60,094 bases of DNA from positions 997 to 61,090 of the forward strand of contig CAYNOU010000003.1 in assembly GCA_964398885.1 (NCBI GenBank). Reading direction: 5' to 3'. The notes below the pieces were generated by a model. That model worked only from the letters and a program-made list of their open reading frames with translations, was not told the origin of the DNA and did no database searches. Numbering within the stretch: the first letter of the stretch is position 1; each line of letters begins with the position of its first letter. This document shows, in pieces, positions 1,671 through 27,500 of the stretch. Made by a program: the position numbers and the translations under genes. This stretch comes from an uncultured Candidatus Cloacimonadota bacterium. Lineage in GTDB: Bacteria; Cloacimonadota; Cloacimonadia; JGIOTU-2.

Positions 1671-2915
1671 ATGCTTGTATTATCAATAGTTTTAGTTATA
1701 TTTATAATCTATGCCATTTTTGAATATCAGCGTCAACAAAGGTATAGAAAGAATATTCCATTAGTAATTCATGTAAATGGCACTCGTGGCAAATCAAGTG
1801 TTACAAGATTAATAGCAGCTGGTTTACAAGCAGGAAACATAAAAACAATTGCAAAAACAACAGGTTCCGCTCCAAGAATAATTTTGGAGAATGGAAATGA
1901 AATTCCTATTATCCGATATTTTGGACCAAATATTAAGGAACAATTAAAGATATTCAGATTTGCTTCTAAAAGAAATATAGATGCACTGGTTCTTGAATGT
2001 ATGGCAATTAATCCTGAATATCAATGGATAACTGAACAGAAGATAACCAAATCCGATATTGGGGTGATTACCAATATAAGACCTGATCATCTTGATGTGA
2101 TGGGACCAGGAATAAAAAATGTTGCATATTCAATATGTAATACATTACCTAAAAATGGAAAAGCTTTTACAAGTGAGCAAAAGCTATTTCCTATAATGAA
2201 AAAAGTTGCTGAGAAGCAAAATATTGATCTGCAATATGTGGAGAGTAATTATGTGTCTGATGAAGATATGAAAGGATTTCCATATATTGAACATAAAGAG
2301 AATGTGGCTTTGGCATGGGAAGTTTGTAACAGCTGTGGTGTTAAAAAGGAGATTGCTCTTAATGGTATGAAAAAAGTAAATCCTGATATTGGAGCTACAA
2401 AATTATTTTTGTTAAAGGATAAAACCAAGGAAATCTATTTTGCTCATTCTTTTGCTGCCAATGATCCTGAATCAACGAAGTTTGTTATGAATTACATAAA
2501 AAATATGGACATAGATATTGAATATACTGGAATTATATTAAATACTCGGGCTGACCGAATGTTTCGTTCAAAACAGTTGATTAAGATGCTTAGTGAAATT
2601 AAATTTAATATGCTTTATTTGATTGGCGAGGAAACTGCAAGAATACAATCCTATGCTTTAAAACACAAGATCTATTCAGATAAAATTTGTAATCTTGGCT
2701 GGATTGAAGGAGAAAATCTTATTAAACAAGTATTAAAAGTTAAATCACGAAAAATATTATTAATTGGAATTGGAAATATTGGAGGGAATGGCAGAATTAT
2801 AGTAAAATATTTCAGTGAAAAGCAAGGCAATAAGCCACAAGAACACACCCTTTCTCCGTCCCGATATAATCGGGACTGCGAAGCCCGCCTGCCAAGCCTT
2901 GGCGGGCAGGGGTGA
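1671..2915 (+). CDS. capB: Poly-gamma-glutamate synthase PgsB/CapB
   Basis: HVNGTRGKSSVTRL, AKTTG, LECMA, DHLDVMGP and FAANDP motifs. The last ~30 codons derive from repeat DNA. Confidence 0.93.
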   Translation: MLVLSIVLVIFIIYAIFEYQRQQRYRKNIPLVIHVNGTRGKSSVTRLIAAGLQAGNIKTIAKTTGSAPRIILENGNEIPIIRYFGPNIKEQLKIFRFASKRNIDALVLECMAINPEYQWITEQKITKSDIGVITNIRPDHLDVMGPGIKNVAYSICNTLPKNGKAFTSEQKLFPIMKKVAEKQNIDLQYVESNYVSDEDMKGFPYIEHKENVALAWEVCNSCGVKKEIALNGMKKVNPDIGATKLFLLKDKTKEIYFAHSFAANDPESTKFVMNYIKNMDIDIEYTGIILNTRADRMFRSKQLIKMLSEIKFNMLYLIGEETARIQSYALKHKIYSDKICNLGWIEGENLIKQVLKVKSRKILLIGIGNIGGNGRIIVKYFSEKQGNKPQEHTLSPSRYNRDCEARLPSLGGQG

Positions 2916-12951: not shown

Positions 12952-14703
12952 TTAACCAATTAACTTATCTATAATTTCCTTTAGAGTCTTTTCTATTTCT
13001 TCAAAATTGCAAATTATCCTTTCTCCAGTTTTTCTAATTTTGAACTCAACCTTTTTATATTTGAAATTTTTCTGACCAACAATTATCTGGATTGGTATTC
13101 CAATCAAATCTGCTTCTTTGAATTTGATACCAGGGCTTACATCTCTGTCATCAAAAAGAATCTCAATATTAATATTTTGAATTTTTTGATAAAGGGTATC
13201 ACAAAATTTTGTTATCTTTTTATCTTCAGTGGTGAGATTTATCAATTCCACTTGATACGGAGCGATTGAAATAGGCCAGATAATGCCATCCTTGTCATAG
13301 TTTTGTTCAATTGCAGCAGCCATTGTGCGAGTAATTCCTATTCCGTAACAACCCATTTGATAGGGGATAGCATCTCCATTTTCCGCTGTATAAGTAGCAT
13401 TCATTGCTTTGCTGTATTTATCTCCGAGTTGGAATATTTGTCCCACTTCAATGCCACGAAAGGATGTCATAGGTTTGCCACACTTAGGACAGGGATCACC
13501 TTCTTTTGCAAGGATGAAATCAGAATATTCTGTAATATTTGCATCTCTTTCAAGGTTTACATTTTTGTAGTGATAATCTTTTTCATCAGCACCAGCAACC
13601 ATATTCCTCATTTCTTTTAGATTTATATCAGCATAAATTTGAATATTTTTTTTGCCAACTGGACCGACAAAGCCAGCAGTAGAACTTGTAAACCTTGCTA
13701 TTTCCTCTTCTGTAGCAAATTCCAATTCTGTAGATTTTTCGTCCTTCGTCCCGATTATATCGGGACTACGGAGAATGGATAAGAAATTTGCAACTTTTAC
13801 ATTGTTGATTTCTCTATCACCTCGTATTAGAATAGCGACAAATTTATCATTAGATTTATATATGATTGTTTTAAGAAGTTGTTTTTTATCAATCTTAAGA
13901 AATTTACTGACTTCATCTGCTGATTTCTTATTTGGAGTGTGAACTTTTTCAAGATTTTTCATTTCTTCGTTTGAATTATTTTTCAAAGGAGCAATTTTGC
14001 AATTTTCTCTTGTTGCCGCATATCCACATTTACAGTGCAACACCTCTGATTCACCAGTTTCAGCCAGAACCATAAATTCATGAGAAAGCGACCCCCCAAT
14101 TGGACCAACATCAGCTTCAACAGCAACAGTTTTTAAACCACATCTTTCAAAAATTCGTGTATAGGCTTTGTGCATTTCATCATAAGTTTTTAGCAAGCAT
14201 TCTTTATCCTTATGAAAACTATACGCATCCTTCATAATGAATTCACGAGCACGCATTACTCCAAAGCGAGGGCGGATTTCGTCACGAAACTTCGTCTGAA
14301 TTTGATATAAATTTATAGGTAATTCTTTATAAGATTTTATTTCGTTTTTTGCGAGAATAGTAATTACTTCCTCATGCGTGGGTCCAAGAGCGAATTCTCG
14401 GTTATGTCTATCTCTCATTCGCATCAATTCAGGTCCATAAACATCCCATCTACCAGATTGTTTCCATATTTCCTTTGGATGTAAAACTGGCATAAGTATC
14501 TCTTCACAACCAATCTTATTGAGTTCTTCTCTGACAATACTTTCAATTTTGTTTATAACTCTTTTTGTTAATGGTAAATAGGAGTATATTCCAGAACCCA
14601 ATTTCCTTAACATCCCACTGCGAATCATAAGTCTGTGACTGGGAATTTCAGCCTCTGCAGGAATCTCTTTAAGTGTAGGAATAAATGCTTTGGAAAATCG
14701 CAT
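12952..14703 (-). CDS. proS: Proline--tRNA ligase (bacterial type with editing domain)
   Basis: GPTHEE, FRDEIRPRFG, GIEVGQIFQLG and MGCYGIG motifs. GGAGG RBS precedes ATG 14703. Confidence 0.97.
   Translation of the reverse strand: MRFSKAFIPTLKEIPAEAEIPSHRLMIRSGMLRKLGSGIYSYLPLTKRVINKIESIVREELNKIGCEEILMPVLHPKEIWKQSGRWDVYGPELMRMRDRHNREFALGPTHEEVITILAKNEIKSYKELPINLYQIQTKFRDEIRPRFGVMRAREFIMKDAYSFHKDKECLLKTYDEMHKAYTRIFERCGLKTVAVEADVGPIGGSLSHEFMVLAETGESEVLHCKCGYAATRENCKIAPLKNNSNEEMKNLEKVHTPNKKSADEVSKFLKIDKKQLLKTIIYKSNDKFVAILIRGDREINNVKVANFLSILRSPDIIGTKDEKSTELEFATEEEIARFTSSTAGFVGPVGKKNIQIYADINLKEMRNMVAGADEKDYHYKNVNLERDANITEYSDFILAKEGDPCPKCGKPMTSFRGIEVGQIFQLGDKYSKAMNATYTAENGDAIPYQMGCYGIGITRTMAAAIEQNYDKDGIIWPISIAPYQVELINLTTEDKKITKFCDTLYQKIQNINIEILFDDRDVSPGIKFKEADLIGIPIQIIVGQKNFKYKKVEFKIRKTGERIICNFEEIEKTLKEIIDKLIG
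13744..13773. repeat. Palindromic cassette inside proS
   Basis: CTTC-GTCCCGATTATATCGGGAC-TACGGAG, matching the cassette at 2854-2883. Confidence 0.85.
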
Positions 14704-14919
14704 TAATGCCTCCAATTTAATATTATTAAACATAAATCATCCTAATTAAAATTGATGTCAAGAAATGCTCCATAAGAACAACTTAATTTCAACTTATAAT
14801 GAAATAATCTTGACGGTAAATTATTTTTCGAGAAATTTATCTTTAATCAATAAAATTCAATCTATCGAAAATCAAAATTGTCGTAGATAGAAAGACAAAT
14901 TTAAAGAAAAAAGGCACTT

Positions 14920-24531: not shown

Positions 24532-27500
24532 GTGAACAATAAAACAAAATTACTTATCTTAATTGGCTTTGTATTTATCCTTTGTTTTTCAAATAATCTT
24601 TTTGGGGTTTTCAACTCACGGGAAGAGATTATTGAAAATTTTGATGATGGTGAAGTTGAACTGCTTTCTTATCCCGGAGAAGATGAAGACCCGGATGACT
24701 GGGCTTTGGACTCAACTATTACCTACAATAACTCACCATACTCACTTAAACTTTTCGGAAATACCTGGAAAATAGAAATGATTGAACCTACTGTAGTTGA
24801 TTCTGACGATGTCTGGCAAGTTTCTGCTTATGTACAAACACTGGGAGAAATTCAAGGTTTTGGTGTTATGGATTCTACCAATGTTTTGTTGTATTCTCTC
24901 GCTGGAACAGAGGAGCTAAATATTGAAGAATGGGTAACTGTGTATCAAGGTACTTTTCCATTACAGACCTGGAATATTTATCAACTTCCAATTGCAGATG
25001 ATTGGTTTGCATGGTTTGATTATTTGCCTTTAATTACTGGTATAATTTTCATAAATGATAGAGATGTGACTCCAACCGGAATAGTCTATTTTGATGAAAT
25101 CATAAATATAACAAATGATTTACCAATTCCTCCTCAAGTTGAAATAAGCTATACCATTGGAAAGATTTATAGAAATTCCAAAGGAAAGAGAAGTGTGGAT
25201 GTCCAATTTTACGGAGAGGTTTTTGACCCAGACAGCGATGAGCATCAGTTTTTCTGGAATTTCGGAGATGATTCAACAAGCACTGAACAAAACCCTTTCC
25301 ACACTTTTTTAGTTCAAGATGACCATCCTTACACTGTATTGTTAGAAGTTGTGGATGATACTGACTTATGGGGACAGGCGACTTGCCAGATTGAAGTTGA
25401 CCCTGGTCCTACTACTTTTCCCATAACAATGAATTTTATCGGCGATATTATGCTTGCAAGAGGTTATGAACAAACAATTATTCCTAATCAGGGAGTAGAG
25501 GCTATATTTGAACCTACTCTTTCTATACTGGGAGAGGCAGCTGATATTACAGTTGCTAATCTGGAGTGTCCTCTTACTACTTATAATGTGCATCATCCCA
25601 CAAAGCCTATCTATTTTAGAGGCTCTCCTGAAAATGTGGCTGGACTTGTCTATGCAGGGATTAATGTGGTGAATCTTGCCAATAACCACATTCTTGATTA
25701 TATGCTACATGGAATTCAGGAAACACAATCTGTTTTAGAAGAGAATTGTATTGCCTTTTCTGGTGCTGGTGCAAATTCTTACGAAGTATATTTGCCACTT
25801 TTCTACTCCAAATCTGGTATAAGTATTGCTTTACTCGCTTCAAGTGACAGAACAGGTCAATACAATAATTATCAACCATATCTGAATGCTGGTTATAATA
25901 AATCAGGCTTTGCTTATATGACACCATATTACATAACTCAACAAATAAATGCTATTGAGGATTATGCTGACCTTATAGTCGTAGAGATGCATGCAGGTAG
26001 TGAATATTCATTATCTCCAGGCAGTAATTATGATAAATCCGATGTGTTTGCAGGTTGGGACCCTGAAGATTTTAATGAAGATGAAGATTATACACCTCGT
26101 ATAGATATTCCTCATATGTGGGATATTGCAATCAGGCATTTTGCTATTGATTCAGGAGCAGATTTAGTTATCTGTCATCATCCACATATTATTCAAGGTT
26201 TTGAAGTATATAATGGAAAATTGATTGCTCATTCTTTGGGAAATTTTGCCTTTGACCTAAGCTATGCTGAAACTTTCCCATCAATGATTCTAAATGCAAA
26301 AATCAATGAAACGGGATTTTATGAATATTCAGTCACCCCAGTTTATATTGATGATTGGATTCCTGTTCCTGCACAGGGAGAGTTGGGCATTTATATTTTA
26401 GACTATCTTGCGAGACGCTCAAAAGATTTAGGAACTTATCTATATGTTGATAGAGAAAATATAACTGCAGACATTATATTGGATACAATTAATATGGAAA
26501 TAAATACAGAGATATATGAACAAGATTTTCAATTATATGAGGATGATGGTTTCTGGATATCAAAACCTATGTGTCTCCAAAAAGATGGAAGTATCTCTTC
26601 AATTAATTCTATTACTCCAGCAAACAATTGGGAATATCGTCTTGGCAGGGAAATAATCTGGTTTGGAAATTTTGAAGATGAAGGATGCTCACTCTGGAAT
26701 GTGAACAGTTCAGATGAATGGTATGATAGCACTGAAGTTTATGCCGGTAATCGCTCTCTTTGTCATAGACGCTATCCAGACTCTGGAGATAATATCATTA
26801 CGAATTTTGAGAAAAGAATAAAATGCTATTCAGACACAACAAGTTATTCTCTCTATGGTCATATTAAAACTCAGAATGGTGCAGAGGTGACTGTTGAAAT
26901 AAGGTATTATTATTCCAGATTTGGCTCCTACTATCTTGGTTCTGATGATATTGGAGAATGGATTAGCGGCGATTCTGAATGGACATTCTATCATAATGAA
27001 TTAACTCTTCCAACAAGCACACATTTTTTTGATATTCGTTTGAATAGCAACTGTCCTGATACTGGAGTAGCTTATTCCTGGTTTGACAATGTTGGCATTA
27101 TTGAATGGACAGCATGGCAGCCTGCTGATATGCCAGTGAATATCACAAATCCCAATGACTATTATTTTATTCAAATCAAGACAGATACACAAGAAGAATA
27201 TGCTTTTATCACATATACAGAGACGAATTATGGTGAAGGTCCTCATGTTTCAATTGAAGATAACCTTTTAAGTAAACAAACCAATGGTAGATTATATCAG
27301 AACTACCCCAATCCATTTAGTCCCCGATTTAATCGGGGATCAACCACAATCTCTTTTAATTTAGCCACCAGTCTTCGCTACGCTACGCCCCGGCAGGCGG
27401 AGAACGCACAAGTAACAATTTATAACATAAAAGGGCAACTTATAAAAACTCTCATCCCAATGACAAATGACCAATGTCCAATGACTAAAGTTGTTTGGGA

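Follow-up and report, generated by a model that had tools for sequence, protein, structure and literature searches.

An in-frame REP-like hairpin insertion in the editing domain of a Cloacimonadota prolyl-tRNA synthetase

The proS gene of an uncultured Candidatus Cloacimonadota bacterium, encoding prolyl-tRNA synthetase (ProRS), contains a 42-nucleotide repeat unit inserted in frame in the part that specifies the INS editing domain. The gene lies on the minus strand at positions 12952-14733 of the window, by which we mean the whole 60,094-nucleotide stretch of DNA analysed here (positions 997 to 61,090 of contig CAYNOU010000003.1, assembly GCA_964398885.1). In our own numbering this is G000:C3:997-61090, and a window coordinate is the C3 coordinate minus 996. 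The unit occupies 13738-13779 on the minus strand, reads TCCATTCTCCGTAGTCCCGATATAATCGGGACGAAGGACGAA on the coding strand and encodes 14 residues, S319-E332 (SILRSPDIIGTKDE). It is one member of a dispersed family of hairpins, it leaves the reading frame open, and it is a recent arrival. Taken as a whole, these facts are very probably best explained by recent insertion of an element resembling the repetitive extragenic palindromes (REPs), which is read by the ribosome as a tolerated, disordered loop.

Where does the insert begin and end? In 17 of 17 orthologues from related genomes, the sequence KVANFL is followed by three to four residues and then by (L/F)(D/E)(F/L)A(T/S); the enzyme studied here has 17-18 residues at the same place. 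DNA alignment with four orthologues leaves a clean gap of exactly 42 nt, with a sliding ambiguity of 1 nt at the boundary. The site is empty in the ProRS of two genomes of the same genus, G002 (90% amino acid identity when BLASTP counts the gap, 93% according to the genome search) and G001 (84% and 86%, respectively). We also searched residues 230-420 against 5.8 billion proteins. This search gave 327 matches; 60 of the best 120 listed were aligned, chosen to span the range of identity, and all 60 lack the insert. The nearest ProRS among those aligned, P0002 (573 aa), reads FL-NAT-ELEFATEEEIARFTSS.

An earlier reading of the window from its letters alone, the original prediction, had placed a repeat-derived, in-frame peptide of about 14-15 residues at 13735-13785 and held that ProRS normally has only a few residues there. 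Both sets of homologues bear out the short connection. Loops of equal length in palindrome-free orthologues, named beforehand as the contrary outcome, did not turn up (17/17 and 60/60 are short). The peptide is indeed a family unit of 42 nt and 14 codons inside INS; only its limits and length needed correction, to 13738-13779 and to exactly 14 residues. The lysine that follows is host-coded, because the empty junction in a cold-seep metagenome (X12, below) reads L-N-A-T-E, like P0002.

Independent DNA holds both alleles. Parts of the stretch occur in 24 public runs, four of which we compared through their Logan contigs: X1, which may be the source sample; X7, another sample; X12, the cold-seep metagenome; and X13, a sediment metagenome. 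One X1 contig covers 13400-13771 and another 13746-14100, with zero differences. Because these contigs cross both filled junctions, the junctions exist in reads assembled apart from the genome bin. A contig from X7 also covers 13746-14100 with zero differences, and the left-side contig from that run stops at 13670. The other two runs carry the empty site. A 580-nt contig from X12 joins 13733 to 13780 through four other letters, which amounts to a net loss of 42 nt, and shows 20 differences over 554 nt; a 10,568-nt contig from X13 joins 13727 to 13780 with 10 letters between, the same net loss, and shows 18 differences over 427 nt. The empty allele is thus in circulation among relatives whose flanks agree with those of G000 to about 96-98%. 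Among the flank differences listed, 14 of 20 in X13 and 5 of 12 in X12 are synonymous. No empty joint was seen in X1 or X7, in contigs of a kind that drops rare variants. By these alignments, the insertion postdates the divergence of this lineage from the nearest relatives known.

All 42 nt of the insert match the repeat family, and the nearest genomic copy is one substitution away. The consensus of the unit, (T/C)CC(A/G)TTCTCCGTAG-TCCCGATnnnATCGGGA-CGAAGG(A/G)TGAA, describes a bulged, dispersed hairpin. Its inner part (13748-13766, minus strand) has an 8-bp stem, GTCCCGAT/ATCGGGAC, and a 3-nt loop, and is accompanied by a weaker outer stem. The tetranucleotide GTAG (13767-13770, minus strand) lies directly 5' of the inner stem on the coding strand. 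This tag is internal to the 42-nt unit and stands 5' of the inner stem in 17 of 17 genomic copies; sister subfamilies have GCAG in its place. As RNA the 42-mer folds at -18.3 kcal/mol (z -3.6), and 0 of 200 shuffles fold as well. As DNA it folds at -10.8 kcal/mol (z -3.9).

The genome itself, G000, is a metagenome assembly of 2.56 Mb in 126 contigs, with 33% GC and a completeness of 97.7%. It contains 17 copies of the 42-mer at up to 7 substitutions, which share the same two ends and differ in their flanks. The 19-mer core, GTCCCGATATAATCGGGAC, occurs in 12 exact copies and gives 60 strand-hits at up to 2 mismatches, against 0 for the reversed control; in 100 dinucleotide-preserving shuffles, nothing came within 3 mismatches of it. 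Two of the exact matches, at 2858-2876 (plus strand) and 13748-13766 (minus strand), are the pair whose identity had been pointed out in the original prediction. The relation proposed between the two holds for the hairpin core, which is all they have in common: the flanks of the copy at 2858, CTTCGCAG...CGGAGAA, belong to a sister subfamily.

An exact 31-nt pattern derived from the family occurs at 28 places in one-genome-per-species contigs, 25 of them in metagenome-assembled genomes of Cloacimonadota. In the 27 of these places that have full flanks, the 42 columns of the unit are conserved and the 20 columns on either side are not; since the pattern fixes 28 of the 42 columns by construction, it is the other inner columns and the sharp ends that are informative. 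No Rfam family matches the unit or the proS region, the sole hit being a chance miRNA match (E 0.56). Single occurrences of the 31-nt pattern lie in contigs labelled Roizmanbacteria, Bacteroidales and Neomarinimicrobiota (L099, L105 and L106). L106 has a full unit nested in a related element, and L099 and L105 have the inner part only; these occurrences reflect either misbinned contigs or a wider spread of the hairpin.

Among relatives the family is confined in our searches to a small group. The pattern CCGTAGTCCCGATNNNATCGGGACGAAGG, sought at up to 2 mismatches with a reversed control that gave 0 everywhere, has 18 hits in G000. It has 21 in G001, 23 in G002, 7 in G003 and 12 in G004, all of the same genus, and 15 in G006, of a sister genus; the other 35 relatives searched have none. 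G001, G002 and G006 carry both the pattern and the short ProRS turn, so in these genomes the family is present and the proS site is empty.

What kind of enzyme has received the insert? The 593-residue open reading frame (ORF) matches the PDB sequence 5znj with 572 bits, as well as 5ucm and 2j3l, and its model aligns with 2j3l, 5znj, 8w8j and 5ucm at Foldseek TM values of 0.83-0.92 (0.86-0.92 for 2j3l, 8w8j and 5ucm). Precomputed Pfam matches are PF00587, PF04073 and PF03129, that is, the class II core, the YbaK-like editing domain and the anticodon-binding domain of a bacterial-type ProRS with INS. The INS match (Pfam tRNA_edit, PF04073; 13552-13938, minus strand; G000:C3:14548-14934) scores 78.9 bits over profile positions 1-118 of 123, and the insert sits mid-way in it. 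proS is the only strong ProRS match in G000, and in profile searches of this 97.7%-complete genome its PF04073 domain is the only one, with no other YbaK/ProXp-type domain found that could take over editing. With a single strong ProRS match and a single tRNA_edit domain, selection is therefore expected to preserve both activities.

The residues that are invariant in INS are all retained: T266, K288, G305, D306, A340, G354, G357, P358, D369 and H388. K288 aligns with residue 287 of 5ucm_A, which is residue 279 of the P. aeruginosa enzyme once a lead of 8 residues is taken off. In E. coli ProRS, K279A is the standard editing-defective mutant (PMC3973320); our matching of K288 to K279 was counted by hand on the alignment and assumes equal numbering in E. 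coli and P. aeruginosa.

An AlphaFold2 model of the protein, made with a 61-row alignment, has a mean pLDDT (predicted per-residue confidence) of 90.8, and values below 50 occur only at residues 1-7 and 324-332. The neighbours of the insert in the model are helix 311-321 and strand 337-339. Modelling, which the original prediction had proposed as a check, thus puts it in a low-confidence loop with a confident helix on one side and a confident strand on the other. The insert is predicted to lengthen a helix-to-strand turn of three to four residues in INS into a disordered loop.

How did the unit get there? We propose that a 42-nt non-coding, REP-like mobile hairpin, with GTAG 5' of its 8-bp stem and with its weaker outer stem, entered proS without target-site duplication after the split from the closest known relatives. 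The unit would then be translated as the 14 extra residues SILRSPDIIGTKDE. With its length of 3 x 14 nt, and stop-free in this orientation and frame, the unit leaves the gene open. The insert would most likely be a passenger that the cell tolerates, either neutral or mildly harmful, with no new function. No target-site duplication is present, because the boundary slides by at most 1 nt both in proS and in a second event, in a peptidase gene described below. From the form of the element and this lack of duplication, we suggest that a Y1 (HUH) transposase, of the REP-associated tyrosine transposase (RAYT) or the IS200 type, may have moved the unit as single-stranded DNA. We hold this last step tentatively, as one that could well prove wrong.

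Enzymes of both types are encoded in the genome. G000 has 12 matches to PF01797 (Y1_Tnp). Three ORFs exceed the cut-off of 80 bits for NF047646 (REP-associated tyrosine transposase), with 109.3, 88.0 and 85.4 bits, and a fourth scores 65.4 bits; IS200-type TnpA genes are present as well. Direct duplications with TCCCGAT-AA/AT-ATCGGGA hairpins enclose two RAYT genes. There is no transposase gene inside or next to the unit in proS. One RAYT-type gene, L046 (G000:C40:15214-15714), is 98% identical to L114 (G001:C202:6123-6623) and was not found in the other 39 relatives. Compared with the 84-86% identity of the ProRS proteins, this suggests either recent transfer or very strong constraint.

Several observations weigh against this account. 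The hairpins flanking the two RAYT genes lack GTAG, though their stem, TCCCGAT/ATCGGGA, is identical. Of 12 Y1 genes, 3 have a hairpin core no more than 300 nt away against 1.25 expected, a difference that is not significant (P ~0.12). Nor do the enzymes and the unit share a distribution: RAYT genes of the L045 type occur in 10 of 11 genomes of a genus in which the unit was not found, and the L046 type was found in G000 and G001 only, yet G002 and G006 carry the unit. On the protein side, the length of the connection varies by at most one residue among the 60 homologues; it is therefore not a usual site for insertions and deletions, and the insert may impair editing or the handling of tRNA. 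We presume that the loop is exposed to solvent and does no harm, with low pLDDT as only a proxy for exposure. Finally, the public runs listed for the stretch include no RNA run.

Has the insert instead been put to use? The loop, or the hairpin in the proS mRNA, might, for example, tune editing, tRNA binding, mRNA stability or the speed of translation. The hairpin is stable in the mRNA (-18.3 kcal/mol, with none of 200 shuffles as good), and the trigger factor gene has kept a repeat insert since before the split of G000 and G002, so that such loops can persist. Yet the insert in proS is very young, because it is absent from relatives 96-98% identical in the flanks, and it shows no sign of adaptation, because the nearest copy is one substitution away. 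The same unit is also found in unrelated genes and in spacers, and the loop is modelled as disordered. We consider co-option improbable.

It is quite improbable that we are observing the loss of the INS domain, with editing disabled by the insertion in a cell that tolerates it. The insert does fall mid-way in the only tRNA_edit match, at a turn that has almost the same length in all 60 homologues. But the invariant residues of INS are intact and the frame is open; the INS fold is modelled at high confidence on both sides of the insert, and no other YbaK/ProXp-type domain that could serve as a replacement was found in G000.

Could the repeat have been wrongly threaded into proS during metagenome assembly or binning? 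G000 is in 126 contigs, and De Bruijn contigs break at the repeat. Against this, the separately built X1 contigs span the left and right junctions without a difference, the X7 contig does so for the right junction, and the identical 593-residue protein is on record from five contigs. An insert that is exactly one unit long and in frame is also not what one expects of an artefact, which we therefore regard as very improbable.

GC-rich 'byp' hairpins in the genes of AT-rich yeast mitochondria are bypassed by the ribosome. That the 42 nt of proS are likewise skipped and not translated is scarcely credible: the setting is similar, with a GC-rich hairpin unit in genes of a 33% GC genome, but a unit of 3n length that is stop-free in this frame calls for no skipping, the TTA before the insert has no matching landing codon after it (GAA AAA TCT), and none of the intragenic cases examined lies in the one frame that is stopped in 17 of 17 copies.

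Recent insertion of a REP-like hairpin, tolerated as a loop, is thus the account we prefer. A bolder form of it would make the family 'codon-neutral'. Over the 17 copies, 68 of 102 reading frames are open, and 4 of 6 in the proS copy; one frame is stopped in every copy by the TAG of GTAG, and the remaining frames are open in 10 to 17 of 17. The bare hairpin core, CCCGA[TA]N2-5[AT]TCGGG, occurs 280 times in the 2.56 Mb. Of these cores, 38 are found well within stop-free frames of 200 codons or more, at least 2 of the 38 probably being upstream of the true start. As a rough figure, coding sequence makes up nine tenths of the genome. With unit lengths that are multiples of three (42 nt, and a 30-nt hairpin-less form in PBP2) and most frames stop-free, it is tempting to suppose that the family evolved to be so, a reading that we find doubtful. 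Equally doubtful is its corollary, that the family could thereby colonise coding sequence and is active now, with two genome-specific insertions, both in genes, and with empty sites in circulation. If true, essential enzymes would be undergoing a natural mutagenesis by loop insertion. REP-type transposition could then also be followed at single-base resolution, which is rare: the limits would be precise, target duplication would be absent, and the loops of other hairpins would often be the landing place.

Many copies of the unit do sit in loops of other hairpins. Targeting of a hairpin loop was considered for proS as well and found no support, the empty sites of G002 and G001 folding no better than shuffles (-0.4 against about -3 kcal/mol), with G006 and G021 giving inconsistent results. 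Some candidate intragenic copies were also set aside. Those at C72, C103, C73 and C44 lie upstream of likely starts (of pth, der, guaA and another gene) and were not counted. The copy at C5 had been taken to lie in rpoN; its ORF has only weak partial Sigma54_DBD and weak GIY-YIG matches and was left unclassified.

The unit shares several features with known systems. Like REPs, it is a stem-loop palindrome with GTAG, in many mainly extragenic copies, in a genome that has RAYT genes. Di Nocera et al. (2013; PMC3733652) describe GTAG- and CGTC-tagged REPs, some of them inside genes; the in-frame hosts include glycyl-tRNA synthetase beta in X. oryzae and E. litoralis. The likeness to their GTAG-tagged REPs is close: a short dispersed palindrome, GTAG by the stem, a mostly extragenic location, a RAYT-encoding genome and some in-frame copies. 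In those elements, however, the tag is at the end of the palindrome, whereas here it is internal to a 42-nt bulged double-stem unit, for which the RAYTs of the genome are candidate partners only. In the available portions of that study Cloacimonadota are not covered, and ProRS does not appear in its supplements.

The classic in-frame palindromes are the Rickettsia palindromic elements (RPEs) (Ogata et al. 2000, as cited in the review PMC10969869), which in R. japonica occur in PheRS beta and IleRS (PMC3767692). What they have in common with our unit, as far as these sources present them, is a palindrome in frame in unrelated housekeeping genes, aminoacyl-tRNA synthetases among them, with an extra peptide compatible with the fold. 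Here the unrelated genes with in-frame insertions are those for ProRS, Peptidase_MA_2, trigger factor, LysRS and PBP2. With lengths of about 100-150 bp, RPEs belong to obligate intracellular Rickettsia, in contrast to a 42-nt unit in a free-living sediment bacterium.

Transposition of the IS200/IS605 type is a single-strand 'peel and paste' process. The IS200/IS605 and RAYT/TnpA-REP systems (PMC3479197, PMC8266576, PMC6006769) resemble ours in their hairpin DNA, in the lack of a signature of terminal inverted repeats or target duplication, and in the Y1 HUH enzymes encoded. They differ in that our unit has no transposase gene inside it or next to it, and that Y1 action on it is only proposed. 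Two other classes do not fit. The target-site duplication of miniature inverted-repeat transposable elements is missing in both filled/empty comparisons, within an ambiguity of at most 1 nt. The unit is also not byp-like, as it lacks matching take-off and landing codons and is stop-free in frame over its 42 nt.

What is new, then, is the host gene and the phylum; REPs and RPEs inside genes, including some for tRNA synthetases, have already been described. In the portions of the literature available to us, repetitive extragenic palindromes in Cloacimonadota receive incidental mentions only. Palindromes inside genes, known from Rickettsia and some Proteobacteria, are here extended to free-living members of this phylum. 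The proofreading domain of an essential, single-copy tRNA synthetase has accepted 14 residues of selfish DNA at a turn of near-invariant length. The clean filled and empty sites fix the limits of the unit: two independent events each added 42 nt and duplicated no target. For REP-like elements, about whose way of spreading there is still debate, limits of this precision are scarce. Moreover, the natural pair of alleles with and without the loop provides a ready-made test of what INS can tolerate.

The second of these events is in a gene for a Peptidase_MA_2 protein (G000:C48:2786-3775, L051), which is exactly 42 nt longer than in G002 and G001, in frame. The insert is specific to G000, lies in the opposite orientation to that in proS and encodes SSFVPIESGLQRTG. 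It sits inside the loop of an older TCCCGATATATCGGGA hairpin, which in G002 and G001 is translated as YPDISG. Nesting is seen also in PBP2 (G000:C29:21123-23165, L050), which has 24 extra repeat-coded residues where G002 has 12 and four other relatives have none. The insert there consists of nested hairpins, including the 30-nt hairpin-less unit, in the loop of another hairpin.

Some other insertions are shared. In trigger factor (G000:C40:19150-20529, L047), 19 repeat-coded residues lie between the N and C domains; the insert is common to G002, degenerate in G001 and absent in G006, G014 and G021. By this pattern it is an older insertion, which arose before the split of G000 and G002 and has been retained through speciation. 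LysRS (G000:C1:92905-94431, L048) is 3 residues longer through a hairpin-coded PDTIG that is common to G002 only. The MeaB GTPase (G000:C18:10128-11156, L052) has a repeat-coded C-terminal tail, SPNSPFVPISSGLRRTGISG, in place of which G002 and four other relatives have short, unrelated tails.

A C-terminal tail may have arisen in this way in the window too. The second copy of the core belongs to a sister-subfamily unit, CTTCGCAG-hairpin-CGGAGAA, at 2853-2883 on the minus strand (nhmmer hit C3:3849-3879), and a second GC-rich hairpin, GCCCGCCTGCCAAGCCTTGGCGGGCAGG, adjoins it at 2884-2910. Positions 2853-2912 account for the stop and about 20 final codons of an open frame of 416 codons (1665-2912), and the C-terminal tail of the protein from this frame seems to be repeat-coded.

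One further copy of the unit, at G000:C20:23425-23477 (L054), abuts a look-alike of a tRNA acceptor and D-arm, GTAGTTCAGTTGGTTAGAGC; neither ARAGORN nor Rfam called a tRNA beside it. Related hairpins also mark a set of secretion tags. Eight type-IX-like tags, on C43, C38, C24, C17, C45, C50, C90 and C52 of G000, read NPFNP-D(I/K/E)IG-TT or NPFNP-RFNRG-ST, and a tag with the hairpin occurs in the window at 27318-27337. The altered tags result from a CCCGAT..ATCGGG hairpin placed right after the NPFNP codons. Other tags of the genome, of the form NPFNP(T/S/E)TTI, are without the hairpin. The eight are either separate insertions or paralogues of one.

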